A DNA stretch of 64,000 bases from Escherichia coli (GTDB lineage Bacteria > Pseudomonadota > Gammaproteobacteria > Enterobacterales > Enterobacteriaceae), in NCBI RefSeq assembly GCF_013122565.1, contig NZ_CP053258.1; one strand, 5' to 3'. This document shows, one piece after another, positions 3,001 to 48,474 of this stretch. The number at the start of each line of letters is the position of its first letter. Position 1 is the first letter of the stretch. The translations under genes were made by a program, and so were the position numbers. The notes under the pieces are model-generated. The model did no database searches, had not been told where the DNA came from, and saw only the letters and a list, made by a program, of their open reading frames with translations.

Positions 3001-4233
3001 CTGCCCCGTAATTTTTCCGCCTGCGGCCAGCAAAGACGGCGCTTCCCATTGAACATTTTTCAGACCGTGAGTTGCTTTACTCACCACAAGCCCCAGGGAA
3101 ACCGTCTGCCCGCCCTTGCCTTCAATACGTTCAGGCAGAGCAATACGGATCACTTCAGATTTGCGGTACTCAAGAACGATGTTGTTATTACGCTCAACCA
3201 GGTCATAGCGGCTGCCTGCCAGCATTCGACGCTCGCGAATGCTGTCTGTATCGAGTTGTTTTTGCAGAGGTTCGCCAATCCGATAATTAACTTCCAGGCC
3301 AAAGCGAGTGTCATTCTCACCACTCTTGCCCTGCTTATGCCCGGCACTCAGGGTCAGAAGAGGCACTGGCGTATAGGTCACCTCGGCAGAAATAGCATGC
3401 GGGTCTTTCTGGCGTTTATCTTTACCAAACAGCCCGACTTCATCGCCATAATACTGTTCATACATCAGGCTTGCGCCAAGCTGCGGCCAGGCGGGTAAAT
3501 AGCCCTCAGCACGAATATCCCAGCCATTCGCCGGGCGTTCCTGATAATCCTCAACATCCGGCGATTTTTTCCAGCCAGAAGCCCGGATATAACCATTGGC
3601 GCTCAGTTTCAAATAATCACGCCAGTATTCCGCACCAACACCAATGCGGGTATGACTACGGGATAAATCATGGTCGATAAAGGTGTTCACCCCCGCCATC
3701 CAGTCATTTCCTGAAAAATGACGCCAGCCAAAACCAATATTTGACTGAGTGCGATCATCTGTACGATGTATTGCCCCCTGAGTGAACAACATATTTGTCG
3801 GCGTATCATAAATAGGATAAAGCATTTCCAGAGAAGAATCCTTCAGCGAGAAATCTTTATCGACATTGAGTTTGACGCGCGCAGTACCGTATTTCCCGAG
3901 CCACTCCTGTATTTCCTGGTTAGCTTTAGCGGTGGCCATTCCGGTAATAAAGTTACGTGTCGCATCGCTATCTGGCTGACTGCTTAAAAAATTCCCAGCA
4001 TTTGCGGCAAACGACGCGACATTTTTCTCCACATTATTATCAGCAGCTACTGTGGTATTTTCCATGCTCAACCGTGGCTGAACCGCATGCTGCGCGCGTG
4101 CCGCCATTACTGGGGTAAAGGTGACCGCGAGTGGAAAAAGAACCTGAACAGAGATATTTGCCCACGCCACACAGCGGGCCAGAACTGAATAACGAAATCG
4201 TGGTTGTTTATGACCTGTTTTATAACGCGACAT
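1..4233 (-). CDS. eaeH: Intimin/invasin-like inverse-autotransporter adhesin with tandem bacterial Ig-like (Big) domains (EaeH/FdeC-like); start ATG at 4233-4231, 3' end runs off the window (>=1411 codons in window)
   Basis: Hand translation of minus strand from ATG at 4233 (AGGAAA RBS ~10 nt upstream) gives MSRYKTGHKQPRFRYSVLARCVAWANISVQVLFPLAVTF... then a beta-barrel-like region (GFGWRHFSGNDWMAGVNTFIDHD...) and many ~100-aa repeats of the type ...TLTVVDSYGNPLQGQEVTLTLPQG.... The ORF track omits it because it has no stop in the window. Frame continuity to position 1 was not checked codon by codon. Confidence 0.8.
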   Translation of the reverse strand, partial: MSRYKTGHKQPRFRYSVLARCVAWANISVQVLFPLAVTFTPVMAARAQHAVQPRLSMENTTVAADNNVEKNVASFAANAGNFLSSQPDSDATRNFITGMATAKANQEIQEWLGKYGTARVKLNVDKDFSLKDSSLEMLYPIYDTPTNMLFTQGAIHRTDDRTQSNIGFGWRHFSGNDWMAGVNTFIDHDLSRSHTRIGVGAEYWRDYLKLSANGYIRASGWKKSPDVEDYQERPANGWDIRAEGYLPAWPQLGASLMYEQYYGDEVGLFGKDKRQKDPHAISAEVTYTPVPLLTLSAGHKQGKSGENDTRFGLEVNYRIGEPLQKQLDTDSIRERRMLAGSRYDLVERNNNIVLEYRKSEVIRIALPERIEGKGGQTVSLGLVVSKATHGLKNVQWEAPSLLAAGGKITGQGNQWQVTLPAYQAGKDNYYAISAVAYDNKGNASKRVQTEVVITGAGMSADRTALTLDGQSRIQMLANGNEQRPLVLSLRDAEGQPVTGMKDQIKTELAFKPAGNIVTRSLKSTKSQAKPTLGEFTETEAGVYQSVFTTGTQSGEATITVSVDGMSKTVTAELRATMMDVANSTLSANEPSGDVVADGQQAYTLTLTAVDSEGNPVTGEASRLRLVPQDINGVTVGAISEIKPGVYSATVSSTRAGNVVVRAFSEQYQLGTLQQTLKFVAGPLDAAHSSITLNPDKPVVGGTVTAIWTVKDAYDNPVTSLTPEAPSLAGAAAVGSTASGWTNNGDGTWTAQITLGSTAGELEVMPKLNGQDAAANAAKVTVVADALSSNQSKVSVAEDHVKAGESTTVMLVAKDAHGNAISGLALSASLTGTASEGATVSSWTEKGDGSYVATLTTGGKTGELRVMPLFNGQPAATEAAQLTVIAGEMSSANSTLVADNKAPTVKTTTELTFTVKDAYGNPVTGLKPDAPVFSGAASTGSERPSAGNWTEKGNGVYVATLTLGSAAGQLSVMPRVNGQNAVAQPLVLNVAGDASQADIRDMTVKVNNQLANGQSANQITLTVVDSYGNPLQGQEVTLTLPQGVTSKTGNTVTTNAAGKVDIELMSTVAGEHNISASVNGAQKTVTVKFNADASTGQANLQVDTAVQKVANGKDAFTLTATVEDKNGNPVPGSLVTFNLPRGVKPLTGDNVWVKANDEGKAELQVVSVTAGTYEITASAGNSQPSNTQTITFVADKATATVSGIEVIGNYALADGKAKQTYKVTVTDANNNLLKDSEVTLTASPASLNLEPNGTATTNEQGQAIFTATTTVAATYTLTAQVSQNNGQVSTKTAESKFVADDKNAVLTASSDVQSLVADGKSTAKLEVTLMSANNPVGGNMWVDIQTPEGVTEKDYQFLPSKNDHFVSGKITRTFSTSKPGVYTFTFNALTYGGYEMKPVTVTITAVAEDTAK

Positions 4234-5128
4234 TGAGATAATTTCCTGATGAACGAATTAACGAACATATGCAGACACAAATAATGGCGTCTGCTTGTCA
4301 GAAAAACCGGGAATTTCCCGGTTTCCTTTTCCGCAGAAAAGGAAATACCTTTATGTAAGAAAGTGCACCGCCACCTAATATATTCAGTGTCTGTAGCCAC
4401 TCATCAGGTGGTTGGGCGCGGGATTATATTTTTATTTATGGGTGAAAATTTAGCTTTTTGTGCAAGTCATTAAAGTATGATTGTCACACTATATTCTCCG
4501 TTTAAATACAGTGAATATATTTTTATTTAAAGTGAATAATGATGTTCTGCTTTTAGTGACCACGATTAGAATTACGCCTAAAGAGGTATATGTTCATAAT
4601 AAGCCAATATTTTTTAAGGGTATTTATTTTCTTTCATCGGGCTATAAAATCCCGAAATATCGGATTTGCACAGCACCGATCAACAGTGCTTAAGCAGGCG
4701 GGTGCTGTTTACGACCAGGATAGTTAAGATAATATCCGGGAAAAGTTGGACATCAGCCCTGTAGAACCTGAATAAGTTCGCCTGACTTTACATAATCATG
4801 AACCGCGTTTTCGGAGCCACAGGCGGTACCAAAGTAAAAGGCTGGTGATGGGTACCTTTAGCCGAATCAGGTAGAAGTCATGAAATTCCCCCCTTAATCC
4901 ACAGCGTGTTCCTGAACTAACCATTCCGGATAGACTATTGGATCAAATTCAGGCATCGAAAGGAACAGGCTGTTTCCCGTTAAGGGATTAATTATCTATT
5001 TTCCTTAATAGATAACTGATGTAATACCTCTATTCAAATTTGTGATACATGTCAAAAAATTGGTTGACCAAACTCGTTATTTATATAAGGACACTTACGA
5101 AGTGCATTTTTAAAGCGAGGAAGTACCA

Positions 5129-5230
5129 ATGAAAGAGAATAAAGTACAGCAAATCAGTCATAAACTGATCAATATCGTTGTTTTTGTTGCAATAGTAGAA
5201 TACGCCTATTTATTTCTCCATTTCTATTAA
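5129..5230 (+). CDS. Small hydrophobic 33-aa protein (MKENKVQQISHKLINIVVFVAIVEYAYLFLHFY), predicted single-TM small membrane protein
   Basis: ATG preceded by GAGGAAG 8 nt upstream; polar N-terminus followed by one hydrophobic helix; inside an AT-rich intergenic region. Resembles the class of small membrane proteins annotated in the E. coli ykg region (possibly ykgR-like, from memory only). Confidence 0.4.
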   Translation: MKENKVQQISHKLINIVVFVAIVEYAYLFLHFY

Positions 5231-5290
5231 TAACGGCAATAAACTGTTCACTTTAGTGATATTTAAAATATGCATCCTTTTTCTGCTTTT

Positions 5291-5320
5291 CAAGCTGTTC
5301 AAGCTGTTCAAGCTGTTCAG
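5291..5320. repeat. Tandem repeat, 3.3 copies of the 9-bp unit CAAGCTGTT
   Basis: caagctgtt caagctgtt caagctgtt cag read directly in the AT-rich spacer. Confidence 0.9.
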
Positions 5321-5657
5321 CGGCGTAAGAGAAAGTATTGAGTATGAATTCGACGATTTAACCATATCTGTTTGATTGGTAATCATCCGTGATTAATGCT
5401 GGTCTATTGATTACGCCAGCATTAACCGCTTAGGGATGTATTCTTCCTGTTCATATACAGCCCTCGAAAAAGAGAGCAAATAAAACTGTGTCCAATATTA
5501 CTCTACCACTCCAGACCGAAGTATCGGTAGAATTAGCAGAACGGCTGGTACAGTAGATTGGGATAGCGTCATTTGTCAGGCATTCCATTGCCATAATAAT
5601 AATTATGAATCAATAGACGTGCTTCTTGATCATGTCTTAAAAATTATACCACGAGCC

Positions 5658-5888
5658 TTATGAAGCATCATTTTTACTGACTGGTGTTAACTTTGCTATC
5701 ATATAAACTCTGTTCTTAAAAAACGCGCCCAGAATTTTATATGATTTTCCTTGTTTTTCTGCCTGTAAAGAAATTTCTTTTTCAGTGCTGTCAATGGTTG
5801 AACCGACGGCAGTAATCGTTTTGGCGACGCTACTGAAAGATAATAAAGACAGTGTCATCACAACAATTAAAGAACAGATAGTATTCAT
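5658..5888 (-). CDS. Small secreted protein, DUF1471/YhcN-like (signal peptide + ~55-aa mature domain)
   Basis: ORF track 5658..5930; internal Met gives MNTICSLIVVMTLSLLSFSSVA (signal-peptide-like) then ...AEKQGKSYKILGAFFKNRVYMIAKL, matching the pattern of YahO/YjfY-type small periplasmic stress proteins. Start chosen at the internal Met; the printed sequence and ORF track appear to disagree by 1 nt here. Confidence 0.4.
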   Translation of the reverse strand: MNTICSLIVVMTLSLLSFSSVAKTITAVGSTIDSTEKEISLQAEKQGKSYKILGAFFKNRVYMIAKLTPVSKNDAS

Positions 5889-6103
5889 GCTAATTCTCCT
5901 GACAATTGAGAGGATGAGTTTTATATACATAGATATTAAACATGAGTCATATTTACTCCAAGAGAAAATACCCCTTCTGTAATTAAACCTTCATCTCCTT
6001 CGGAATGAGTAATGCATAATATAATGCATCTTGCTATGCAAAACAGTGGATATAAATTTTCCTCCCGACCTATTTAATAAAACGTGAATGTAAAAGTTAT
6101 TCT

Positions 6104-6841
6104 TCAGTTTGCAGATGCAGTGGGTCTGATGGTAATTTCGGTTGTATCAACGCTTTCGGGCGATTCAATAATATGCCTTACAGCACGGGCAATATCCGCA
6201 GGTTGAAGTGCAACAGAACGGTAGACATCCATTGCCTTCATGGTTTCCACATGGGTAATGGTTGAAGCCAGTTCACTTTCGACAACGCCAGGATTTACGC
6301 ATGTCACACGGATTTTCGAGCTTTCCTGCCGTAAGCCATCAGAAATAGCCCTTACTGCAAATTTTGATGCGCAATAGACTGCGCCTGTGGGCACAACAGA
6401 AAGGGCACCAATAGAACCAAGATTGATTATCTGACCGGAACCCTGTGCTTCCATCACCGGAAGTACAGCGCCAATTCCCCAAAGTACACCTTTGATATTC
6501 ACGTCTATAGTGAGCTCCCATTCATCCTGTTTTCCTGCTGCAAGCGGTGAAAGCGGCATAACGCCCGCATTATTGATAAGAACATCAACTCGCCCCCAGC
6601 TATCCAGCGCTGCTTGCACGAAATCGGCCATGGACTGTCGGTTTGTGACATCCAACTCCCGCGCTTTAGCAATTCCTCCTGCGCGGCAGATTTCGGTTGC
6701 AATGGCTTCGATACGCTCAACTCTGCGTGCGCCCAGTAAAACCTTTGCACCTGTCGTTCCCAGCGCTCTGGCAATACCTTCCCCAATACCACTTGATGCG
6801 CCGGTAATTAATATGACCTTATCCATTACGTTCTCCTTCAA
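6104..6841 (-). CDS. Short-chain dehydrogenase/reductase (classical SDR)
   Basis: ITGASSGIG Rossmann motif near N-terminus, NNAG, YCASK catalytic motif; 245 aa (alternative start at MDKVILITG). Confidence 0.85.
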   Translation of the reverse strand: MKENVMDKVILITGASSGIGEGIARALGTTGAKVLLGARRVERIEAIATEICRAGGIAKARELDVTNRQSMADFVQAALDSWGRVDVLINNAGVMPLSPLAAGKQDEWELTIDVNIKGVLWGIGAVLPVMEAQGSGQIINLGSIGALSVVPTGAVYCASKFAVRAISDGLRQESSKIRVTCVNPGVVESELASTITHVETMKAMDVYRSVALQPADIARAVRHIIESPESVDTTEITIRPTASAN

Positions 6842-6924
6842 ATGTGTTCGGAGAGAGAATAGAACTTTATGATTGGTTCCAGTATCCTGCTTTCAATGTA
6901 CTCAGTGGTTAGCGGCATTAAACA

Positions 6925-7824
6925 ATGAAAATCGATCTTAATCTTTTACCCATTTTTATCGCGGTAGCAGAAGAGAGTAATTTTAGTAAAGCCGCCGCAC
7001 GACTGGGCGTTACCCGTTCAGCGGTCAGTCAGGGAATAAGACGCCTTGAAGATGCATTCGGGACAATGCTTGTAATGCGGACCACGCGCTCAGTTAATTT
7101 GACGGAAGCGGGAGAACGGCTGCATAAATCGTTGTCATTACCTTTATCCGGTATTGAGGCAACGTTCGAAGAGATGGTTTCTGACCATGTGCCACGCGGA
7201 CTTCTCAGAATCGCGGTGACGTCGATAGCAGAAGAATTTCTTTCAGGTCCGCTAATCGCTTCGTTTGCAGCTGCCAATCCAGCCGTTACGCTTGATATTG
7301 TTGTAACGGATGAGGAATTCGATATCGTGGCCGCAGGTTACGATGCTGGCGTAAGGCTCGGAGAGGTCATTGAAAAAGACATGATTGCTGTGCCCATTAC
7401 CGGCAGGCAGCGTGAAATGGTCGTTGCCTCTCCCTCCTATCTCGCAGCCAACAGCACTCCTGTTCATCCGCGTGAACTTGTGAATCATAAGTGTATCGGC
7501 TGGCGTCAGTCCCCGGAGGTTGCGCCTTATCGCTGGCCATTTGAAGAAAACGGGAGAGCTTTCGACCTTGCGATTGAACCGCAGATTACGACTAATGATC
7601 TGCGTCTGATGTTGCGGCTGGCTCTTGCCGGTGGAGGAATAACAATTGCCACTCAGGAAACTTTCAGGCCGTATATTGAAAGCGGTAAGCTTGTATCGCT
7701 GCTTGATGACTTTCTTCCACAATTTCCGGGCTTCTATCTGTATTTCCCACAGCGTCGCAATATTGCACCAAAGCTCCGCGCCCTGATTGACCACGTCAAA
7801 GAATGGCGGCAGCAATTGACTTAA
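6925..7824 (+). CDS. LysR-family transcriptional regulator, divergent from the SDR gene
   Basis: N-terminal HTH (LNLLPIFIAVAEESNFSKAAARLGVTRSAVSQGIRRLE), 299 aa, LysR substrate-binding-like C-terminus; divergent 83-bp intergenic region with the SDR gene. Confidence 0.9.
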   Translation: MKIDLNLLPIFIAVAEESNFSKAAARLGVTRSAVSQGIRRLEDAFGTMLVMRTTRSVNLTEAGERLHKSLSLPLSGIEATFEEMVSDHVPRGLLRIAVTSIAEEFLSGPLIASFAAANPAVTLDIVVTDEEFDIVAAGYDAGVRLGEVIEKDMIAVPITGRQREMVVASPSYLAANSTPVHPRELVNHKCIGWRQSPEVAPYRWPFEENGRAFDLAIEPQITTNDLRLMLRLALAGGGITIATQETFRPYIESGKLVSLLDDFLPQFPGFYLYFPQRRNIAPKLRALIDHVKEWRQQLT

Positions 7825-8389
7825 ATGTCTGCACCTGCACGGCCTGATGTCAGAACAATATTTTGATGAATTGCCTACACCAGCTAGCCGCAGCACATTC
7901 TTGCATACGACATGTCTGCGGTTTACTTTTCACGCTCAAACCTTATGGTAAAGCACAATAATGATCCCCAGGGCTATATAAATGTTTTGTAATTAGCTCT
8001 TAAGACGAACTTTTCAGACTAACTTCTTTATTCATCCATAATGAAGACTGTATTAGGAAGTTCTCTAAAAACATGAATAACCACTGTCTTACAATGAATT
8101 TAGTTTACAGAACATTCTTATTGAGAAAAAACAACACTGTACACACCCAATAATATAGAAATGTAAATTTAAGTTTATTAATCTTTTGAATTATAATCAT
8201 AACTTTCTGTTAACCATTAGAATATCAATAGATTATAATCACTGAACACACATTTTTATAATTGCTATTCCCACACTCAAAATGCGCATCCCAATATCTT
8301 ATTTGACACTTTGTTGTTTGCTACTAGAGTTAATTGGGTGCTGACAAGGCACATGTTATTTACAAATTGGAAATCAGAGGAGAAATGAT

Positions 8390-8572
8390 ATGACCGAACA
8401 TCGTGGCGGTGCAGGTAATTTCGCTGAAGATCGACAAAAAGCTTCTGACGCAGGTCGTAAAGGTGGCCAACAAAGTGGTGGTAATTTTAAAAACGATCCA
8501 CAAAGAGCATCAGAAGCAGGGAAAAAAGGTGGTCAGAATAGCCATGGCGGCGGTCGTAAATCTGACTCTTAA
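8390..8572 (+). CDS. yciG: YciG/YmdF-like KGG-repeat general stress protein
   Basis: 60 aa, repeated GG..K...A.EAG.KGGQ motifs (RKGGQQSGGNF, KKGGQNSHGGGRK); preceded by 560 bp of AT-rich non-coding DNA; RBS GGAGAA. Confidence 0.8.
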   Translation: MTEHRGGAGNFAEDRQKASDAGRKGGQQSGGNFKNDPQRASEAGKKGGQNSHGGGRKSDS

Positions 8573-8645
8573 TTTTTCATCTCCCTAAATTCGTGAATAA
8601 CTGCAGCTAACTGCGAGCCTACGGGCTCGCAGGGACAACTCTGGA

Positions 8646-9152
8646 GTGATTATGCAAATTAAATCTGTTGAAGATATCTTCATCCATTTATTATCTGACA
8701 CATATAGTGCTGAGAAACAACTAACCAAGGCACTATCTAAACTTACTCGCTCCGCATATAGTGATAAATTAACCGCTGCTTTTCAGTCACATCTTGATGA
8801 GACACATGGTCAAATTGAACGCATCGACCAGGTTGTTGATTCTGAAGATGGTATTAAACTAAAAAGAATTAAGTGCGCCGCAATGGAAGGCCTTATTGAA
8901 GAGGCGAATGAGGTAATTGAAAGCACTGACAAAAATGAAATACGTGATGCTGCGTTGATTGCAGCAGCACAAAAAGTAGAACACTATGAAATTGCCAGTT
9001 ATGGCACCCTGGTAACACTTGCTGAGCAATTAGGATTTAAAAAAGCGGCTCAACTCCTGAAAGAAACTCTGGAAGAGGAAAAAGCTACTGATGTCAAATT
9101 AACAGACCTGGCATTTAATAATGTTAATAAAAAAGCTCAGGATAACTCCTGA
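8646..9152 (+). CDS. yciF: YciF-like DUF892 ferritin-like stress protein
   Basis: 168 aa; paralogous to the next gene; operon order yciG-yciF-yciE as in the known yciGFE(-katN) stress operon. Confidence 0.8.
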   Translation: MIMQIKSVEDIFIHLLSDTYSAEKQLTKALSKLTRSAYSDKLTAAFQSHLDETHGQIERIDQVVDSEDGIKLKRIKCAAMEGLIEEANEVIESTDKNEIRDAALIAAAQKVEHYEIASYGTLVTLAEQLGFKKAAQLLKETLEEEKATDVKLTDLAFNNVNKKAQDNS

Positions 9153-9186
9153 ACTATAGACTTCACTTTTTTAGGAGAAATATATT

Positions 9187-9693
9187 ATGAATAGCATTGA
9201 ACATTATCATGACTGGCTTCGTGACGCACACGCAATGGAGAAACAAGCGGAATCAATGTTGGAGTCTATGGCCAGCAGGATAGAAAACTATCCTGAGTTA
9301 CGTTCCAGAATTGAGCAGCACATTAGCGAAACAAAGAACCAGCTTTCACAGCTTGAAAGCATACTTGATCGTAATAATATTTCTCGCTCTGTCATTAAAG
9401 ACTCTATGAGTAAAATGGCCGCGTTTGGGCAATCTATTGGTGGAATTTTTCCATCTGATGAAATTGTCAAAGGTTCGATCAGTGGCTATGTTTTTGAACA
9501 ATTTGAAATTGCGTGCTACACATCTCTTCTCGCAGCAGCCAAAAATGCGGGTGATACAGCTTCAGTACCAATTATTGAAGCAATTCTTAATGAAGAAAAA
9601 CAAATGGCTGAATGGCTTCTTAACCATATTCCAGACACCACTGAGCAGTTTATGGTCAGATCTGAAATTGATGGCGCTGAAGCAAAAAAATAA
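9187..9693 (+). CDS. yciE: YciE-like DUF892 ferritin-like stress protein
   Basis: 168 aa, MNSIEHYHDWLRDAHAMEKQAESMLESMASRIENYPEL...; tight spacing to flanking genes. Confidence 0.8.
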   Translation: MNSIEHYHDWLRDAHAMEKQAESMLESMASRIENYPELRSRIEQHISETKNQLSQLESILDRNNISRSVIKDSMSKMAAFGQSIGGIFPSDEIVKGSISGYVFEQFEIACYTSLLAAAKNAGDTASVPIIEAILNEEKQMAEWLLNHIPDTTEQFMVRSEIDGAEAKK

Positions 9694-9711
9694 TTCTTTA
9701 GAGGAGGAATT

Positions 9712-10602
9712 ATGTTTAGACACGTGAAAAAACTTCAATATACAGTACGTGTAAGTGAACCAAACCCAGGCTTAGCTAATCTACTTTTAGAACAATTCGG
9801 CGGCCCACAGGGTGAGCTTGCAGCTGCATGCCGATACTTCACTCAAGGTTTAAGTGATGAAGATGCAGGTCGAAGGGATATGCTGATGGACATAGCAACA
9901 GAAGAACTAAGCCATCTCGAAATTATTGGTTCTCTTGTTGGTATGCTCAACAAAGGTGCAAAAGGAGCACTCGCTGAAGGAACTGAGAATGAAGCGGAGC
10001 TTTACCGTTCCTTAACTCAAAATGGCAATGACAGCCATATAACTTCTCTTCTCTACGGAGGAGGCCCAGCATTAACTAATTCAGCTGGAGTACCCTGGAC
10101 TGCAGCTTATGTTGATACTATTGGCGAAGTCACAGCCGATCTTCGTTCAAATATTGCAGCTGAAGCTCGTGCAAAGATCATTTACGAGCGTCTCATTAAT
10201 GTTACTGATGATCCTGGAGTGAAAGACACTCTGGCATTTTTAATGACCAGGGAAGCAGCACATATGCTTTCTTTTGAAAAAGCATTACATTCAATTCGTA
10301 ACACTTTTCCACCAGGAAAATTACCACCGATTGAGAAGTACAAAAACGTATATTACAACATGTCAGAAGGTGAAGATGTCAGAGGTAGTTGGAACAGTGA
10401 TGAAAACTTTGATTATGTTTCCGATCCAGTTCCAGCTGTTGACGGTGGGGATGGGAAGGCCTCGATAATTCTTTCGACCAAGCAAGAAGCTATGATAAAA
10501 GCTATGGCAACAAGGTTGAAATCCCATGAAGATATCAATCCTGTCACTGGCGCTGAGCTTGCTGAAGGAGAGCCACAAACAAAGGTAAATAGTAAAAACT
10601 AA
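9712..10602 (+). CDS. Manganese (non-haem) catalase, KatN-like
   Basis: 296 aa, ferritin-like di-metal fold with EELSHLEIIG and REAAH motifs typical of Mn catalases; fourth gene of a yciGFE-katN-type arrangement (known from Salmonella). Confidence 0.8.
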   Translation: MFRHVKKLQYTVRVSEPNPGLANLLLEQFGGPQGELAAACRYFTQGLSDEDAGRRDMLMDIATEELSHLEIIGSLVGMLNKGAKGALAEGTENEAELYRSLTQNGNDSHITSLLYGGGPALTNSAGVPWTAAYVDTIGEVTADLRSNIAAEARAKIIYERLINVTDDPGVKDTLAFLMTREAAHMLSFEKALHSIRNTFPPGKLPPIEKYKNVYYNMSEGEDVRGSWNSDENFDYVSDPVPAVDGGDGKASIILSTKQEAMIKAMATRLKSHEDINPVTGAELAEGEPQTKVNSKN

Positions 10603-10692
10603 TTATCTTCTGGTATTTAGCTATCTCTCATAAATTTTAATGGCCGCAGAGATATCCTAAGCTCTAGCCACTGAAAATACATTTATATTTCG

Positions 10693-10727
10693 AAGCCCGC
10701 GATATTATAAGCGGGCTTTTATTTTAA
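10693..10727 (+). terminator. Rho-independent terminator after the Mn-catalase gene
   Basis: AAGCCCGC-gatattataa-GCGGGCTT followed by TTATTTT. Confidence 0.6.
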
Positions 10728-11050
10728 CCTTCTGGTATTACAGGCCACTCAATATCCGGTGCTACTGATGGCTCAACACGATTCAACAACATCCGATATG
10801 TCTTCCATGCGGCCATTCAACATTTCGCAGAAATGCAACTAAGAGACATTACTGAATCAAAAATTTATTCAGCAATGCAGAAAATGACGAACCGGCGTCA
10901 TGAGGAAAACTGGAAACTCAGGGCAGAAGCATGCAGAAAAAAGGGAAACCTGTTCCAGAATACACGCCAAACCCAGCGTCTGTTGCAACGAAGGCTACGC
11001 ATCTTTCATTTATAAAAGCCCTGCTAAGAGCCGCAGAGCGTGAATAGAAA

Positions 11051-11718
11051 ATGCTGGATAAGGCACCAATTATTAAAGTGCCTCAACCGAAGAATAAACG
11101 GATCCGCTGGCTGGAACCTCATGAAGCACAAAGGCTGATTGATGAATGTCCGGATCCATTAAAGTCTGTTGTTGAATTTGCACTGGCAACAGGTTTAAGA
11201 CGCTCGAACATCATCAACCTTGAATGGCAACAAATAGACATGCAGCGCCGGGTGGCCTGGATAAACCCGGAAGAGAGTAAATCAAACTGCGCGATTTGCG
11301 TTGCGCTGAATGATACTGCATGTCGAGTATTGAAAAAACAAATCGGGAATCACACCGTTGGGTATTTGTGTAAAAGGAAAGCTGTACAAAACCAGACGGA
11401 ACGAAAGCGCCAACAGTCAGGAAGATGCAGTATGACGCAAACACAGCCAGGAAAACGGCGCTGAGACGAGCTGGTATTGATGATTTCAGATTTCACGACT
11501 TGAGACACACCTGGGCAAGTTGGCTGGTTCAAGCCGGAGTCCCGTTGTCAGTGTTACAGGAAATGGGAGGCTGGGAGTCTATCGAAATGGTTCGACAATA
11601 TGCTCACCTCGCACCTAATCACCTTACCGAACACGCACGGCAAATAGACTCGATCCTAAACCCATCGGTCCCAAATTTGTCCCAGTCAAAAAATAAGGAA
11701 GGTACTAACGATGTGTAA
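11051..11718 (+). pseudogene. Tyrosine-recombinase (phage integrase) remnant: catalytic C-terminal half only, with a frameshift near 11425-11464
   Basis: Two overlapping frames (11051..11464 and 11425..11718) together give an integrase catalytic domain ([19 protein letters not shown]...; [39 protein letters not shown]); N-terminal ~200 aa absent; ends 15 bp from the tRNA 3' end in convergent orientation. Confidence 0.7.
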
Positions 11719-11732
11719 CTTATTGATTTAAA

Positions 11733-11808
11733 TGGTGCCGATAAGAGGAGTCGAACCTCCGACCTTCGCATTACGAATGCGCTGCTCTACCAACTGAGCT
11801 ATATCGGC
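11733..11808 (-). tRNA. thrW: tRNA-Thr (anticodon CGU)
   Basis: Minus-strand sequence GCCGATATAGCTCAGTTGGTAGAGCAGCGCATTCGTAATGCGAAGGTCGGAGGTTCGACTCCTCTTATCGGCACCA folds as a canonical cloverleaf with CGT anticodon and CCA end. Confidence 0.95.
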
Positions 11809-11922
11809 CCTGAAAGGACATGTTCACGAACGTGAATCACGGTGGACAAGGTTAAAACTAACCGGGCGATGCGTCAATGGCCTTGTGAATCAAATGGCTA
11901 CTTTTGCATCACCCGGTTTTAT

Positions 11923-13176
11923 TTACGCACGAATGGTGTAATCACCAATGCCGATCCACTTGTAAGTGGTCAGTGCTTCCAGCCCCATTGGGCCACGCGC
12001 GTGGAGTTTTTGTGTGCTTACCGCCACTTCCGCACCCAGACCAAACTGGCCGCCGTCGGTAAAACGCGTAGAGGCGTTAACGTAAACAGCGGACGAATCC
12101 ACTTCGTTAACAAAACGCTGGGCGTTGCGCATATCGCGGGTCAGGATCGCATCGGAGTGTTGTGTGCCGTGTTCACGAATATGGGCGATGGCATCGTCAA
12201 GATCGCTGACGATTTTGACGTTCAAATCTAATGACAGAAACTCATCGTCATACTCTTCGGCTTTAACCGCCACCACCTTCGCGGGGCCTGTCTGCAACTG
12301 CGCCAGCGCAGCAGCATCTGCGTGTAACGTCACGCCGCTTTCCGCCATTTGCTTGCTTAATGCGGGCAGGAAGCTATCGGCGATGTTTTTATTTACCAGC
12401 AACGTTTCTACCGTATTACATGTGCTCGGACGCTGAGTTTTCGCGTTGACGATCACTTTTAATGCTTCAGCGATCTCTGCACTTTCATCAACGTAAATAT
12501 GGCATACGCCTATACCACCAGTGATCACCGGGATTGTCGACTGTTCGCGGCACAGTTTATGCAAACCAGCGCCACCACGCGGGATCAGCATGTCGATGTA
12601 TTTATCCATACGCAGCATTTCACTGACCAGCGCACGGTCAGGATTATCAATCGCCTGCACGGCACCCGCCGGTAAGCCACAGGATTTCAGGGCGTCCTGA
12701 ATCACCGCCACCGTTGCCGCGTTAGTGCGACAGGTTTCTTTGCCACCACGCAGGATCACCGCATTACCGGTTTTCAGGCACAGCGAAGCGACATCAACCG
12801 TCACGTTCGGGCGCGCTTCATAAATCACGCCAATAACCCCCAGCGGTACGCGACGACGCTCAAGACGCAGGCCGCTGTCCAGTACGCCGCCATCGATTAC
12901 CTGCCCCACCGGATCGGCGAGATTGCACACCTGGCGCACATCGTCGGCAATGCCTTTCAGCCGTGCGGGCGTCAGTGCCAGACGGTCAAGCATCGCTTCG
13001 CTAAGGCCATTGGCACGCGCGTCAGCAACATCCTGGGCGTTAGCGTTGAGGATGATTTCGCTTTGTGCTTCCAGTTCATCGGCGATTTTTTCCAGCACGC
13101 GATTTTTTTCGCGGCTGGAGAGTTGCGCTAATTTATACGAGGCTTGCTTCGCGGCAATGCCCATTTGTTCCAGCAT
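11923..13176 (-). CDS. proA: Gamma-glutamyl phosphate reductase
   Basis: 417 aa full-length match to ProA by recollection ([38 protein letters not shown]...); 11-bp spacing from proB. Confidence 0.95.
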
Positions 13177-13187
13177 CAGCCTGCTCC

Positions 13188-14291
13188 TTAACGGGTAATC
13201 ATGTCATCACGGTGAACGGCAACCGGGCCGTATTCATATCCCAGTATTGCATCAATTTCTTGCGAGTGGTGTCCGGCAATACGGCGTAATGCATCGCTGT
13301 TGTAACGACTGACGCCGTGAGCGATATCGCGACCTTCGAGGTTGCAAATGCGGATGACTTCACCACGCGAGAAATTGCCAGTCACGCTTTTAATGCCTTT
13401 CGGCAACAGGGAGCTGCCGCGTTCAAGAATGGCGGCAGTTGCCCCTTCATCTACCGTGATTTCACCCGCCGGCGGCGCACCGAAAATCCAGCGTTTACGG
13501 TTTTCAAGCGGAGTCGCCTGGGCATGGAACAACGTACCGACGGAAATGCCTTCCATCACATCACCAATAACGCCCGGCTTGCTGCCCGCGGCAATAATGG
13601 TGTCGATACCCGCACGGCAAGCCACGTCTGCGGCCTGCAATTTGGTACTCATGCCGCCAGTTCCGAGGCCTGAAACGCTGTCACCGGCAATCGCGCGCAG
13701 TGCGTCATCAATGCCGTAAACATCTTTAATCAGTTCTGCCTGCGGATTGCTGCGCGGGTCAGCGGTATACAAACCTTTTTGATCGGTCAGCAGCAACAGT
13801 TTATCGGCACCCGCCAGAATCGCCGCCAGCGCAGAAAGGTTATCGTTATCGCCGACCTTAATCTCTGCCGTAGCGACAGCATCGTTCTCATTGATTACCG
13901 GAACGATATTGTTATCGAGCAACGCTCGCAGGGTGTCGCGGGCGTTCAGGAAGCGTTCACGGTCTTCCATATCAGCACGGGTCAGCAGCATCTGCCCGAC
14001 GTGAATGCCATAAATCGAAAACAGCTGTTCCCACAGTTGAATCAGTCGACTCTGCCCTACCGCCGCCAGCAGTTGTTTCGAGGCGATAGTCGCTGGCAGT
14101 TCCGGGTAACCCAGGTGCTCACGTCCGGCGGCGATCGCGCCCGACGTCACAATAACAATCCGATGCCCGGCGGCATGTAACTGCGCGCACTGGCGAACAA
14201 GTTCAACGATATGGGCACGGTTCAGGCGGCGCGATCCGCCTGTTAGCACACTGGTGCCGAGTTTTACCACCAGCGTCTGGCTGTCACTCAT
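13188..14291 (-). CDS. proB: Glutamate 5-kinase
   Basis: 367 aa starting [19 protein letters not shown]; the ORF-track start (14378) is an upstream in-frame extension. Confidence 0.95.
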
Positions 14292-14479
14292 GATTCTCTG
14301 CCATTCAATTTTAGGAAAAATGATATCAAACGAACGTTTTAGCAGGACTGTCGTCGGTTGCCAACCATCTGCGAGCAAAGCATGGCGTTTTGTTGCGCGG
14401 GATCAGCAAGCGTAGCGGCAGTTGTTTACGCTTTTATTACAGATTTAATAAATTACCACATTTTCAGAATATTATTAAT

Positions 14480-14498
14480 CTGTAATATATCTTTAACA
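14480..14498 (+). promoter_or_regulatory. Pho box (PhoB binding site) upstream of phoE
   Basis: CTGTAATATATCTTTAACA matches the CTGTCATA-type direct-repeat Pho box about 80 bp upstream of the phoE start. Confidence 0.6.
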
Positions 14499-14578
14499 AT
14501 CTCAGGTTAAAAACTTTCCTGTTTTCAACGGGACTCTCCCGCTGAATATTCGCGCGTTAATTAAAATCAGGAATGAAA

Positions 14579-15634
14579 ATGAAAAAGAGCACTCTGGCAT
14601 TAGTGGTGATGGGCATTGTGGCATCTGCATCCATACAGGCCGCAGAAATATATAACAAAGATGGTAATAAACTGGATGTCTATGGCAAAGTTAAAGCCAT
14701 GCATTATATGAGTGATAATGACAGTAAAGATGGCGACCAGAGTTATATCCGTTTTGGTTTTAAAGGTGAAACACAAATTAACGATCAACTGACTGGTTAT
14801 GGTAGGTGGGAAGCAGAGTTTGCCGGTAATAAAGCGGAGAGTGATACTGCACAGCAAAAAACACGTCTCGCTTTTGCCGGATTGAAATATAAAGATTTGG
14901 GTTCTTTCGATTATGGTCGTAACCTGGGCGCGTTGTATGACGTGGAAGCCTGGACCGATATGTTCCCGGAATTTGGTGGCGACTCCTCCGCACAGACCGA
15001 CAACTTTATGACCAAACGCGCCAGCGGTCTGGCGACGTATCGGAACACCGACTTCTTCGGCGTTATCGATGGCCTGAACTTAACCCTGCAATATCAAGGG
15101 AAAAACGAAAACCGCGACGTTAAAAAGCAAAACGGCGATGGCTTCGGCACGTCATTGACATATGACTTTGGCGGCAGCGATTTCGCCATTAGTGGGGCCT
15201 ATACCAACTCAGATCGCACCAACGAGCAGAACCTGCAAAGCCGTGGCACAGGCAAGCGTGCAGAAGCATGGGCAACAGGTCTGAAATACGATGCCAATAA
15301 TATTTATCTGGCAACTTTCTATTCTGAAACACGCAAAATGACGCCAATAACTGGCGGCTTTGCCAATAAGACACAGAACTTTGAAGCGGTCGCTCAATAC
15401 CAGTTTGACTTTGGTCTGCGTCCATCGCTGGGTTATGTCTTATCGAAAGGGAAAGATATTGAAGGTATCGGTGATGAAGATCTGGTCAATTATATCGATG
15501 TTGGTGCTACGTATTATTTCAACAAAAATATGTCAGCCTTTGTTGATTATAAAATCAACCAACTGGATAGCGATAACAAATTGAATATTAATAATGATGA
15601 TATTGTCGCGGTTGGCATGACCTATCAGTTTTAA
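14579..15634 (+). CDS. phoE: Phosphate-starvation-inducible outer membrane porin PhoE
   Basis: 351 aa with signal peptide [21 protein letters not shown] and porin C-terminal ...VGMTYQF. Confidence 0.95.
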
Positions 15635-15642
15635 TGGATATT

Positions 15643-15663
15643 GCCGGATGTGATGCATCCGGC
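15643..15663. terminator. Hairpin between convergent phoE and crl (likely bidirectional terminator)
   Basis: GCCGGATG-tgatg-CATCCGGC inverted repeat immediately after the phoE stop. Confidence 0.45.
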
Positions 15664-15672
15664 ACATTTCAC

Positions 15673-16131
<459 letters not shown>

Positions 16132-17376
16132 TTAACACAAACGTTTTTCGATCCAGTCGGTGATTTCCTGAAGACCTTTGTCAAAATTCCGATACACCGG
16201 GTTAAATGGGATCTCTAATAATTTACCGTCAGCAGATGATGAGGTGATTAAGCGTGAGTCCTCTTCCGGGCTGAACGGATCGTTCTTCCAGTAGCCTGAT
16301 AACATTGGCGTTGGGCAGCGACGTCCCAGCAATCCTTGCACTTTTAATGAATAGCGATTCAGCTCCACGCGCAACGCTTCGTCGGAAGCATCATGCATCC
16401 CCAAACGACTCGCCAGAACGTCAAGATACATTTCCGGCACCTGTTGCTGGCACTTAAAATCACTCAACAGGGTATGAACTACCGGACCAAGACAGGCAAC
16501 CGCTTTCAGACGCGGCGATTCAAGGTATGCCAGACGCACTGCAACGTTAGCGCCGAAACGGAAACCAAAGGCCGCGACGCGAGTGTGATCCACCCACGGT
16601 ACGTTAGGCAGCGCCTTTAAGACGTGCTGATGCAACAGGCTGGAGTCCTGGGTGAGCTTCCATTTTGAAGAAAAGCCCACCGACGGCATATCAATAGTCA
16701 GCATCGCAATGCCGCGCGGCGCAAAATAACGTTCATACAGGCTGTAATAGTCCGTCTGCATCGCATCCAGACCACCACACATTAATACTGTCGGGAACGG
16801 GCCATCGCCTTTCGGCATATGCAAAAAGCCGGTGATGGGCGCACCGCCGGGTACGGTAAACTCCATCTGCCGCATCGTGCCCGGCAGACGCTGAGCGGCC
16901 TCTTCATAGGCGCGGTTTGACAAAGCCTGCGCTTGCTCAGCCAGGTCATCTCCTTTCAGATGAGGATAGGCGGCAATGTTGTACAACGTAGCCGCATGAA
17001 GCCAGTGTCGACCACTGAGTTGCGGATCTTCTTCCGCACAGGCTTTTTGTTGCCACACCATCGCCTGGGTGGCCCACTCATAAATCCAGTTGCCGCCGCG
17101 GTAGCCAATCACCGTATCGTATAAATCATCGTCGGTACGTTCGGCATCGCTCATCACAATACGGGCCTGGACGTCGAGGATTTCACGTGGGTCAATGCCG
17201 CGCCAGATCCACATCAGACGGTTAATCATGCGATACCAGTGAGGGATGGTTTTACCATCAAGGGCCGACTGCACAGGCGGTTGTGCGCCGTGATTAAAGC
17301 GGCGGACTAGCGTCGAGGTTTCAGGATGTTTAAAGCGGGGTTTGAACAGGGTTTCGCTCAGGTTTGCCTGTGTCAT
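16132..17376 (-). CDS. frsA: Esterase FrsA (alpha/beta hydrolase)
   Basis: 414 aa, [30 protein letters not shown].... Confidence 0.95.
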
Positions 17377-17467
17377 GGATGCAGCCTCCAGAATACTTAC
17401 TGGAAACTATTGTAACCTGCCTGAAGTTAAAAAGAACAACGCCCGGCAGTGCCAGGCGTTGAAAAGA

Positions 17468-17926
17468 TTAGCGACCGGAGATTGGCGGGACGAATACGAC
17501 GCCCATATCCCACGGCTGTTCGATCCAGGTATCTTGTGGGATATCAACAACATAATCATCAACCAGCGGACGACCAGCCGGTTTTGCGAAGATGGTGACA
17601 AAGTGCGCTTTTGGATACATTTCGCGGATTGCCACTGCAGTACCACCGGTATCCACCAGGTCATCAATTACGATGAAGCCTTCGCCATCGCCTTCTGCGC
17701 GTTTCAGCACTTTAAGCTCGCGCTGGTTGTCGTGATCGTAGCTGGAAATACAAACGGTATCGACATGACGAATACCCAGTTCACGCGCCAGTAACGCACC
17801 CGGTACCAGACCGCCACGGCTTACGGCAATAATGCCTTTCCATTGTTCAGAAGGCATCAGTCGGCTTGCGAGTTTACGTGCATGGATCTGCAACATGTCC
17901 CAGGTGACGATGTATTTTTCGCTCAT
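17468..17926 (-). CDS. gpt: Xanthine-guanine phosphoribosyltransferase
   Basis: 152 aa, [39 protein letters not shown].... Confidence 0.95.
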
Positions 17927-18186
17927 GTGAAGTGTCCCAGCCTGTTTATCTACGGCTTAAAAAGTGTTCGAGGGGAAAATAGGTTGCGCGAGATTATAGA
18001 GATCTGGCGCACTAAAAACCAGTATTTCACATGAGTCCGCGTCTTTTTACGCACTGCCTCTCCCTGACGCGGGATAAAGTGGTATTCTCAAACATATCTC
18101 GCAAGCCTGTCTTGTGTTGACAACATTTTCTGCTAACCCTGTGACCTGCAATACTGTTTTGCGGGTGATCGACAAGGAGACTTAAC

Positions 18187-19644
18187 GTGTCTGAACTGTC
18201 TCAATTATCTCCACAGCCGCTGTGGGATATTTTTGCCAAAATCTGTTCTATTCCTCACCCGTCCTATCATGAAGAGCAACTCGCTGAATACATTGTTGGT
18301 TGGGCAAAAGAGAAAGGTTTCCATGTCGAACGCGATCAGGTAGGTAATATCCTGATTCGTAAACCTGCTACCGCAGGTATGGAAAATCGTAAACCGGTCG
18401 TCTTACAGGCCCACCTCGATATGGTGCCGCAGAAAAATAACGACACCGTGCATGACTTCACGAAAGATCCTATCCAGCCTTATATTGATGGCGAATGGGT
18501 TAAAGCGCGCGGCACCACGCTGGGTGCAGATAACGGCATTGGTATGGCGTCTGCGCTGGCGGTTCTGGCTGACGAAAACGTGGTTCACGGCCCGCTGGAA
18601 GTGCTGCTGACCATGACCGAAGAAGCCGGTATGGACGGTGCGTTCGGCTTACAGAGCAACTGGTTGCAGGCTGATATTCTGATTAACACCGACTCCGAAG
18701 AAGAAGGTGAAATCTACATGGGTTGTGCGGGGGGTATCGACTTCACCTCCAACCTGCATTTAGATCGTGAAGCGGTTCCAGCTGGTTTTGAAACCTTCAA
18801 GTTAACCTTAAAAGGTCTGAAAGGCGGTCACTCCGGCGGTGAAATCCACGTTGGCCTGGGTAATGCCAACAAACTGCTGGTGCGCTTCCTGGCGGGTCAT
18901 GCAGAAGAACTGGACCTGCGTCTTATTGATTTCAACGGCGGCACACTGCGTAACGCCATCCCGCGTGAAGCCTTTGCGACCATTGCTGTCGCAGCTGATA
19001 AAGTCGACGCCCTGAAATCTCTGGTGAATACTTATCAGGAGATCCTGAAAAACGAGCTGGCAGAGAAAGAGAAAAATCTGGCCTTGTTGCTGGACTCTGT
19101 AGCGAACGATAAAGCTGCCCTGATTGCGAAATCTCGCGATACCTTTATTCGTCTGCTGAACGCCACCCCGAACGGTGTGATCCGCAATTCCGACGTGGCA
19201 AAAGGTGTGGTCGAAACCTCCCTGAACGTCGGTGTTGTAACCATGACCGACAACAACGTAGAAATTCACTGTCTGATCCGTTCTCTGATCGACAGCGGTA
19301 AAGACTACGTGGTGAGCATGCTTGATTCGCTGGGTAAACTGGCTGGCGCGAAAACCGAAGCGAAAGGCGCATATCCTGGCTGGCAGCCGGACGCTAATTC
19401 TCCGGTGATGCATCTGGTACGTGAAACCTATCAGCGCCTGTTCAACAAGACGCCGAACATCCAGATTATCCACGCGGGCCTGGAATGTGGTCTGTTCAAA
19501 AAACCGTATCCGGAAATGGACATGGTTTCTATCGGGCCAACAATCACCGGTCCACACTCTCCGGATGAGCAAGTTCACATCGAAAGCGTAGGTCACTACT
19601 GGACACTGCTGACTGAACTGCTGAAAGAAATTCCGGCGAAGTAA
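18187..19644 (+). CDS. pepD: Cytosol non-specific dipeptidase (aminoacyl-histidine dipeptidase), GTG start
   Basis: 485 aa, MSELSQLSPQPLWDIFAKICSIPHPSYHEEQLAEY...; M20 peptidase motifs. Confidence 0.95.
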   Translation: MSELSQLSPQPLWDIFAKICSIPHPSYHEEQLAEYIVGWAKEKGFHVERDQVGNILIRKPATAGMENRKPVVLQAHLDMVPQKNNDTVHDFTKDPIQPYIDGEWVKARGTTLGADNGIGMASALAVLADENVVHGPLEVLLTMTEEAGMDGAFGLQSNWLQADILINTDSEEEGEIYMGCAGGIDFTSNLHLDREAVPAGFETFKLTLKGLKGGHSGGEIHVGLGNANKLLVRFLAGHAEELDLRLIDFNGGTLRNAIPREAFATIAVAADKVDALKSLVNTYQEILKNELAEKEKNLALLLDSVANDKAALIAKSRDTFIRLLNATPNGVIRNSDVAKGVVETSLNVGVVTMTDNNVEIHCLIRSLIDSGKDYVVSMLDSLGKLAGAKTEAKGAYPGWQPDANSPVMHLVRETYQRLFNKTPNIQIIHAGLECGLFKKPYPEMDMVSIGPTITGPHSPDEQVHIESVGHYWTLLTELLKEIPAK

Positions 19645-19700
19645 TTATTTGATTTGCTGCCGGATGGCGTTCAATCACCTTCCGGCAGTTTCATCCTTCA

Positions 19701-20315
19701 TTATCCTTCGATAAAAGCCATCCCTGTAAATGTCCGTCGCGGGTTGCCACGTTCAATCTGGTGATGGAACATTCGCCGCTGCGATTTCAGCACCGCGCTA
19801 TTCTCCTGTTGCTGTTGTTCCAGCTTCCAGGCAATCAGCAATCGCGCCAGCCGTTTGTTAGCATGCTGGCTGCGCTCTGACTGAACCTTCACGCTAATAC
19901 CGGATGCCAGATGCGTGGCACGTACCGCCGAGTCGGTTTTATTGACATGTTGACCGCCCGGCCCCGACGAACGCAGCGTCTCATACCGGATCGCATCGGA
20001 TTGCCCCTGCTCATCAGCGGTAAAACGCCCAATGCCCAGAAACCAGTTTTTACGCCCGTGATGTGGGCGATACGGGCTCGGGCAAATCCACTGAATAGTG
20101 CCACACCAGCTTTCGCTTAACGCCCATGCGTTGTCGCCATCCAGAGAAATCAGCGCCGAACGCAGCGTGTCAGAGTAGCGGCCTGTTTCTGTTTCCAGCA
20201 CCGTTACCGCGACGTCTTGTCGGGCAGTTTCTTTAATTAGCCTGTCCAGCGCCTTTTTCACTGCGAGACAACATTCTTCCGGCCCCTGCGCTGAGGAGAG
20301 TTGTAGCAAGATCAT
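19701..20315 (-). CDS. prfH: Peptide chain release factor homologue PrfH (apparently full length, ~204 aa)
   Basis: Starts [19 protein letters not shown]...; contains GGQ motif ([17 protein letters not shown]); ATG overlaps the stop of the upstream RtcB-like gene (ATGA). ORF-track start at 20399 is an upstream extension. Confidence 0.85.
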
Positions 20316-34729: not shown

Positions 34730-35179
34730 TTAATGCTTCAAGGGGAATGACTTCATCAGTAATTCTTCTAAAGAAGAATATAAAAATTCCATTTCATAAG
34801 AGTCATGCAGAAAAACAAATATCTTACCATCTGTATTCATAAGAATAGGGTTTCCGCAGCCATCATCTGAAATAGCATAAAATGAATTCAATATATTTTT
34901 ATCAAGATCTTTATATATTTCCCTAAACTTCAGAGTAAGATCAACTACAGAAGCCTTTCCTACTAAGGAACCATTTTTAAAGGCATGTATAGCTATGCCA
35001 CCAAAGGCCCCACCAAATTTCTTAATAAACTCAATATATTGTATATTGAATTTAATATTTAATATTTTTTCAGCCTGAATGATCTCCTCATCAGAAGCTG
35101 GTATACCATATAGGACCATATCTTGGTCAGATGTTATCTCATCTCTGACTCTTGCTAGCAATTCTTCATTCATACGCAA
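34730..35179 (-). CDS. Predicted immunity protein for orphan toxin 4 (SMI1/KNR4, SUKH-like)
   Basis: 149 aa, AT-rich, directly downstream of an rhs C-terminal toxin module; IQYIEFIKKFGGAFGG motif typical of SUKH immunity proteins. Confidence 0.6.
   Translation of the reverse strand: MRMNEELLARVRDEITSDQDMVLYGIPASDEEIIQAEKILNIKFNIQYIEFIKKFGGAFGGIAIHAFKNGSLVGKASVVDLTLKFREIYKDLDKNILNSFYAISDDGCGNPILMNTDGKIFVFLHDSYEMEFLYSSLEELLMKSFPLKH

Positions 35180-43517: not shown

Positions 43518-48474
<4,957 letters not shown>

Follow-up and report, generated by a model that had tools for sequence, protein, structure and literature searches.

How a four-gene stress operon ending in a manganese catalase gene came to lie beside the tRNA gene thrW of an Escherichia coli chromosome, and whether it still serves the cell there, is the question raised by a stretch of contig NZ_CP053258.1 (assembly GCF_013122565.1), the whole 64,000 nucleotides of which are referred to below as the window. 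The genes concerned are paralogues of yciG, yciF and yciE followed by katN, and they share the interval 6104-10727 with two genes encoding an SDR-family oxidoreductase and a LysR-family regulator. In a preliminary description of this interval, all six genes were placed in one thrW-proximal island carrying a stress module that was thought to be horizontally acquired or a second copy. In this study, the interval was compared with 5426 complete E. coli genomes, which are the genomes counted throughout, and with phage records, protein families and published work on related operons. It is very probable that positions 7880-10727 form a self-contained phage cargo cassette (a 'moron') holding a second yciGFE set together with a catalase, and that it derives from a phage with a thrW integrase that has since been lost. 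The preliminary interpretation of the island is therefore partly supported; it missed both the phage origin of the module and the earlier characterization of the operon in enterohaemorrhagic E. coli (EHEC).

Six intact open reading frames (ORFs) occupy the interval, and the four stress genes that had been described among them were confirmed. The SDR and LysR genes are divergently oriented, and a gap of 565 bp separates the latter from the yciG-like gene, after which yciG, yciF, yciE and katN follow co-directionally with spacers of 79, 34 and 18 nt, in the operon order known from Salmonella and EHEC. The yciG paralogue (8390-8572, plus strand) encodes a general stress protein of 60 amino acids with two KGG repeats (Pfam PF10685) and is matched across its full length by phrog_19000. 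The yciF paralogue (8652-9152, plus strand, with its start at 8646 or 8652) and the yciE paralogue (9187-9693, plus strand) encode DUF892 ferritin-like proteins of 166 and 168 amino acids, respectively, which match the structures of YciF (PDB entry 2gs4, E 5e-81) and YciE (PDB entry 3ogh, E 2e-96); PF05974 was found on proteins identical to both. The last gene, katN (9712-10602, plus strand), encodes a manganese (non-haem) catalase of 296 amino acids (Pfam PF05067). This protein aligns to the manganese catalases of PDB entries 6j42, 4r42 and 1jku and retains their metal-ligand motifs (GE at 34-35, EELSH at 64-68, AAEARA at 149 and REAAH at 180). Against the NCBIfam manganese-catalase equivalog, it reached 167 bits, compared with a cut-off of 350, and KatN is thus a member of the manganese-catalase family that falls outside that equivalog. 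Full-length PHROG families exist for all four cassette proteins.

The resemblance to the Salmonella-type yciGFE-katN order that had been proposed is borne out by the proteins. KatN is 84% identical to Salmonella KatN and 98.6% identical to the KatN of the O157:H7 prophage copy, and it has no counterpart in K-12. The identities to the K-12 core proteins and to the O157:H7 prophage copy are 82 and 98% for YciG, 78 and 97% for YciF, and 88 and 98% for YciE, respectively. The Salmonella operon, which has the same four-gene arrangement, is a fixed chromosomal locus, whereas the operon in the window is probably an extra paralogue delivered by a phage. Robbe-Saule et al. in 2001 and Beraud et al. in 2010 are said to have described RpoS dependence and H-NS/YncC control of the Salmonella locus.

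The K-12 yciGFE genes (b1259-b1257) were found between trpA and ompW and lack a catalase, as the preliminary description had stated; although the first three genes of the cassette are homologous to them, the K-12 genes lie at another locus and are not associated with a phage. Because only 4573 of the 5426 genomes hold at least 80% of this locus, compared with 381 for the cassette, the 'core' yciGFE is itself variably present; the other 853 have no match covering at least 80% of it, and 697 genomes gave no megablast match to K-12 yciGFE at all. The complete genome nearest to the window that bears the same thrW remnant, H1 (strain wlxctx60, from a bear), also carries core yciGFE at trpA-ompW, and the cassette is a second copy in that genome. 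The trp region of the window's own strain lies beyond the 64 kb analyzed, and a core copy there is likely but not certain, because the core locus is found in 4573 genomes. Thus, the proposal of a second copy stands as far as a paralogous set (78-88% identical to the K-12 core) is concerned and holds for H1, where both copies are present. Gene conversion from the core copy was considered for yciF, in which the window and H1 differ at nine sites, and was rejected; these sites are dispersed and do not follow the core allele.

The distribution of the cassette and its neighbours point to its origin. As a discrete unit of 2.85 kb with 92-93% DNA identity, 7880-10727 is present in 381 complete genomes (7%), always in the chromosome; no plasmid copy was found among these carriers. 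The gene to its right is a tail-fibre-assembly gene (tfa) in every context inspected, and in four of the five contexts the cassette terminates a block of lambdoid tail genes: the lambdoid prophages of H3, O157 PA20, Evo1 and Z0117EC0098 continue beyond tfa with the J-lom-tail fibre block. The position directly distal to a lambdoid-prophage tfa is thus constant, with the gene reduced to a remnant of 30 codons in the window and intact elsewhere apart from a partial pseudogene in Evo1. The left neighbour varies, being a DinI-like gene by prfC in H3, a methyltransferase gene in O157:H7 and a recombinase gene in Z0117EC0098. In Evo1, where the prophage occupies the lambda attB site by ybhB, it is the attP arm, and the lambda attachment (att) core is located about 340 bp past the left end of the cassette.

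The G+C content is 32% in the region upstream of yciG (7880-8389), 41% in the four genes and 51% in the core flank, and the AT-rich upstream region noted in the preliminary description is therefore real. The suspected horizontal acquisition likewise agrees with the low G+C content, the presence of the cassette in 7% of complete genomes and the constant tfa neighbour. From its surroundings, the module is best read as lambdoid-prophage cargo, for which a temperate phage was the vehicle. In phage lambda, the morons of the b region are cargo genes between the tail-fibre genes and attP. The cassette resembles them in its position just past tfa and near an att arm, in having its own predicted promoter and terminator, in its orientation opposite to the late genes and in its lower G+C content; it differs in that the phage context has been lost here, so that the cargo is effectively a chromosomal cluster. 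A transposable unit was also considered and rejected, since the inverted and direct repeats found at the cassette ends were only short, imperfect pairs at chance level.

The direction of transfer might also have been the reverse, with the cassette being ancestral chromosomal DNA at thrW that phages captured from there. Salmonella yciGFE-katN operons have been described as part of the genome (Wan et al., 2017; PMC5363993), and KatN homologues with 80-87% identity are widespread in Enterobacteriaceae. However, only two of the 381 E. coli carriers have the cassette at thrW, where it is still joined to tfa and integrase fragments, and its G+C content is ten points below that of the core flank. Capture from thrW is consequently regarded as extremely improbable, and transport to thrW by a phage is preferred.

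The remains of that phage lie between katN and thrW. The tfa remnant (10724-10816, minus strand), recognized by tfa PHROG matches, consists of the last 30 codons only; it aligns to intact tfa up to about 10815 and is fused at 10815-10817 to a tyrosine integrase pseudogene (10815-11718, plus strand), which was delineated by tblastn against the intact 372-amino-acid integrase of strain CX21. The pseudogene lacks its first 71 codons, contains two frameshifts and two in-frame stops, and ends 14 bp from thrW. This tRNA-Thr(CGT) gene (11733-11808, minus strand), which was identified by ARAGORN with an Rfam tRNA score of 71 bits, is the integration site, and proA, proB, phoE and crl lie beyond it. 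An Rfam scan of 4000-12500 at a relaxed threshold returned thrW as the only structured RNA. The integrase remnant next to thrW was therefore correctly recognized in the preliminary description, as was an adhesin on the left, which alignment to the annotated relative H1 indicates to be fdeC.

Intact homologues of the integrase (about 96.5% identity) stand next to thrW in 1267 genomes, and in strain CX21 an intact integrase of this type belongs to a full temperate prophage at thrW. The CX21 prophage was examined as a progenitor and rejected, as it has an e14/Mu-like tail module and no katN. The form found in the window, in which the cassette is joined to the tfa stub and the integrase, occurs in two of the 5426 complete genomes (H1 and H2). 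It measures 3.9 kb, and its only intact genes are the four cargo genes.

On the left side, the boundary of the phage-derived DNA excludes two of the six genes. The LysR gene (6925-7824, plus strand) is the intact counterpart of the K-12 pseudogene yagP. The SDR gene (6104-6841, or 6104-6826 in RefSeq relatives, minus strand) can be given only a generic family assignment, since all of its NCBIfam SDR matches are under the curated cut-offs. This pair is intact in 388 complete genomes, O157:H7 included, and a C-terminal fragment of the LysR gene occurs alone in about 2900 more, K-12 included. The K-12 fragment, yagP, equals window positions 7486-7875 and adjoins intF of CP4-6, while a P4-like element lies next to the intact pair in O157:H7; the thrW elements flanked by the pair, or by what is left of its LysR gene, are thus unrelated in these two genomes. 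Similarity of the flank stops at window position 7875 in K-12, O157 and about 3300 genomes, and similarity of the cassette to the prophage copies starts at 7880-7888, which places the distal junction between the chromosomal flank and phage-derived DNA at 7875-7880. Because similarity ends at 7875 in other genomes, where different elements follow, both genes belong to the chromosomal DNA that flanks the thrW integration hot spot and are part of no island.

The opposing view, that 6104-10727 is a single island in which the LysR and SDR proteins work with the stress operon, draws on the physical adjacency of the genes and on the transcription of the LysR gene toward the cassette. However, the two sets of genes are distributed independently: the pair is intact in 388 genomes, with about 2900 LysR fragments besides, and the cassette is present in 381, yet they are adjacent in only two. 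In addition, different elements lie beyond 7875 in K-12 and O157. A single functional island is thus highly improbable, and the placement of the SDR/LysR pair within the thrW island in the preliminary description was wrong.

The orientations of the phage-derived parts fit a lambda-like map that runs from attL (thrW) through int, directed toward attL, to the late genes, tfa, the opposite-strand cargo and attR. A temperate phage with a thrW-specific integrase would have borne the cassette past tfa, at the distal end of its genome, and would have inserted at thrW. The rest of the phage would then have been lost through an internal deletion reaching from int codon 72 to about tfa codon 165, and a second event would have removed the distal att site. 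One prophage plus deletions appears to be the simplest history. We can only infer it, because the distal junction is not an att site and neither an intact thrW progenitor nor an isolated phage carrier was found.

Several observations weigh against the reading of the cassette as cargo of a lost thrW phage with a stress function. A thrW-derived direct repeat was searched for at the distal junction and none was found, and the native 65-bp spacer and thrW' copy that form the distal boundary in K-12 and O157 are absent here; with its interior deleted and no distal thrW repeat, the element is a remnant and not a prophage bounded by att sites. No intact thrW prophage with the cassette next to the LysR flank was present in the complete-genome set. 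Furthermore, among 50,697 phage records searched at the DNA and protein levels, no isolated phage with the cassette was found, and the known carriers are all prophages, some of them clearly defective. As for function, the distal upstream region shares only 79-83% identity with that of the O157 copy that has been studied, and the regulation of the present allele would follow by analogy with it.

The only strong protein matches among the phage records were to OR851627.1 and OR845539.1, two unannotated records of 1.6 and 2.2 kb. Their KatN is 84% identical to that of the window, equal to the identity of Salmonella enterica KatN, and they may be chromosomal fragments and not phage genomes. At the junction itself, the flank at 7860-7880, TTTTGATGAATTGCC, loosely resembles the thrW-proximal sequence at 11719-11745, TTGATTTAAATGGTGCC; in K-12 and O157, the true thrW-proximal copy, TTGATTT(T/A)AATGGTGC, is located 65 bp further on.

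The signals for transcription of the cassette were analyzed by consensus scans, folding and alignment. A promoter is predicted at 8303-8330 (plus strand), with a -35 element TTGACA, a 16-nt spacer and a -10 element TAGAGT (10 of 12 consensus matches); the call derives from consensus and conservation only. The predicted -10 element is preceded by C (at -13) and followed by TAA, which we take to be sigma-S-like features. In K-12, the region upstream of core yciG conserves the position of the promoter, including its -35/-10 region, and the motif ATTTGAC...CTA...TTAAT. One paper reportedly mapped the yciG promoter and a YncC site. The AT-rich region upstream of yciG (7880-8389, plus strand) is a likely H-NS target in view of its composition. 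Overall, it is 79-83% identical to the O157 and H3 copies, and conservation differs along its length: in the 33 aligned columns nearest to yciG, 90-95% agree with the prophage copies, identity falls to 82-83% in the preceding 60 columns, which include the promoter, and it is 62-87% in the distal AT-rich DNA. A scan between the four genes found no convincing internal terminator. A predicted intrinsic terminator with a 9-bp GC-rich stem, a 10-nt loop and a U-rich tract lies at 10692-10726 (plus strand), between the stops of katN and tfa. Its hairpin appears in both the minimum-free-energy and centroid folds, although a simple scan missed it, and five aligned copies show a single loop-base difference.

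The closest known system is the katN operon of EHEC O157:H7, in which katN (z1921) is arranged with z1922-z1924 on the cryptic prophage CP-933X (Wan et al., 2017; PMC5363993). RpoS is essential for transcription of EHEC katN and OxyR promotes it, deletion of hns raises it more than 450-fold, and the gene aids growth under hydrogen peroxide (PMC5363993). The operon in the window shares its gene order and protein lengths, with 97-99% amino-acid identity, as well as the left boundary at 7880-7888, the tfa gene on the right, and the conserved promoter-proximal region and terminator. The two differ in that DNA identity is about 92.5-93%, with pS (the proportion of differing synonymous sites) at about 0.17 between the thrW and prophage cassette types, a value that is insufficient alone to fix their branching order. 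They also differ in the distal upstream region (only 79-83% identical), in the reduction of the carrier phage here to stubs of tfa and of the integrase at thrW, and in the type of the accompanying type VI secretion system (T6SS). The operon has therefore already been characterized in EHEC, and the window shows this known system in a context that is rare and decayed.

By analogy with the O157:H7 copy, a single promoter about 60 bp upstream of yciG would transcribe all four genes; it would need RpoS, would be promoted by OxyR and would be silenced by H-NS acting on the AT-rich DNA, and transcription would end at the hairpin after katN. KatN, as a haem-independent dimanganese catalase, would remove hydrogen peroxide in stationary phase or under stress. 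YciE and YciF belong to the ferritin-like four-helix-bundle proteins and probably act on iron or oxidants, and YciG is a small hydrophilic stress protein. For this allele, both the control by RpoS, OxyR and H-NS and the catalase activity are presumed from the relatives.

Maintenance of the cassette was examined in the copies that share the thrW remnant. This form is present in at least three diverged sub-lineages, namely the window, the pair L014 and L015 (draft or read-assembled contigs), and H1 and H2 (complete genomes). The genes yciF, yciE and katN are intact in all five copies, and yciG is intact in every copy but that of L015, where the contig cuts the gene off. Between these sub-lineages, 8-15 synonymous and 0-9 non-synonymous differences were counted (pN/pS, the corresponding ratio per site, 0-0.19), and between the window and the prophage copies 75-76 synonymous and 13-15 non-synonymous differences (pN/pS about 0.05). 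The divergence of the cassette from H1 is 1.8%, compared with 1.9% for the core flank. Because the ORFs are intact, pN/pS is low and divergence equals that of the flank, the cargo appears to have passed down with the chromosome ever since the decay of the phage and to have been kept by purifying selection as the integrase degenerated.

It could be argued instead that the cassette is a silent, decaying relic of no use to the cell. The prophage around it is degraded, H-NS strongly silences the O157 copy in laboratory culture (PMC5363993), and the core yciGFE present in H1 could make three of the four genes redundant. However, across five copies that diverge by up to 2%, every sequenced ORF has remained intact (pN/pS 0-0.19), and the adjacent integrase has two frameshifts and two stops; the promoter-proximal stretch and the terminator are conserved as well. 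A relic without function is very unlikely on this evidence, and a cargo retained by selection is the better account.

Secretion of KatN must also be considered, since T6SS-dependent secretion of EHEC KatN has been reported (PMC5363993). In the window, a T6SS cluster extends over 35170-63524 (minus strand), about 25 kb from katN. All of its annotated features lie on the minus strand: TssK (62181-63524), a long-form TssL with an OmpA domain (60868-62184), TssM (56026-59892), VgrG (48498-50711), a full Rhs gene (43871-48010) and four orphan Rhs C-terminal fragments (41474-43312, 39360-40820, 36699-38315 and 35170-36297). In O157 Sakai, a T6SS is found at the same fadE-proximal locus. Because the cluster in the window shows no megablast similarity to the Sakai cluster, it appears to be of a different type.

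According to one proposal, KatN is mainly a secreted T6SS effector that detoxifies reactive oxygen species of the host, and not a cytoplasmic stress enzyme. The 98.6% identity to the O157 protein for which secretion was reported (PMC5363993) and the T6SS cluster nearby would favour such a role. However, that cluster differs in type from the Sakai one, the claim of secretion comes from a single study, the family searches found no T6SS targeting feature in KatN, and a katN mutant behaved like the wild type in mice (PMC5363993). A main role as an effector is thus unlikely. An extended proposal, in which the cassette is a set of domesticated phage genes kept under selection over about 2% of core divergence and KatN is exported by the neighbouring T6SS, is distinctly unlikely; if it were true, cooperation of KatN with the T6SS would be a general feature and not a peculiarity of EHEC. 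A cytoplasmic stress enzyme is therefore the preferred role for KatN.

Further observations concern the DNA to the left of the SDR gene and the lineage of the strain. In the stretch from fdeC/ykgR to the SDR gene (about 4250-6100), the window, H1 and H2 are without genes that are present there in O157:H7; those seen in the O157 stretch are paoB, paoC, paoD, an MFS transporter gene, an alpha/beta hydrolase gene and a LysR gene. K-12 has ykgMO and the ecp operon in this interval as well. A partial copy of ykgR lies in O157 exactly where similarity to the window resumes (window position 5162, L004 position 7084), and the arrangement suggests a deletion through recombination between two ykgR copies. 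At 5658-5930 (minus strand), in a stretch of 34-37% G+C adjoining the SDR gene, there is a 90-amino-acid ORF with an N-terminal hydrophobic stretch that is annotated as hypothetical in relatives; it gave a weak match, under the cut-off, to the multiple stress resistance protein BhsA (E 4e-4). From proA to pepD (11809-20000), the window is at most 98.7% identical to any of the complete genomes, and the nearest contigs, which were identified through exact-protein look-up, reach 98.8-99.2% identity. Few finished genomes thus appear to represent the lineage of the source strain. A Japanese black bear and human faeces in Singapore are the sources of relatives that share the thrW remnant.

For annotation, these results mean that the island boundary should be drawn at 7876-11732, that the SDR and LysR genes should be treated as flank, the latter as intact yagP, and that the four stress genes should be named prophage-type yciGFE-katN paralogues and not core yciGFE. 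The context is mildly unusual in that a thrW prophage has been reduced to a stub of which only the cargo survives. The catalase, which has been seen as a marker of pathogenic E. coli, is also found in commensal-type isolates from wildlife and human faeces. Neither this occurrence nor the survival of the cargo changes current understanding; the locus provides a small, clean example of phage cargo that has outlived its phage under purifying selection.

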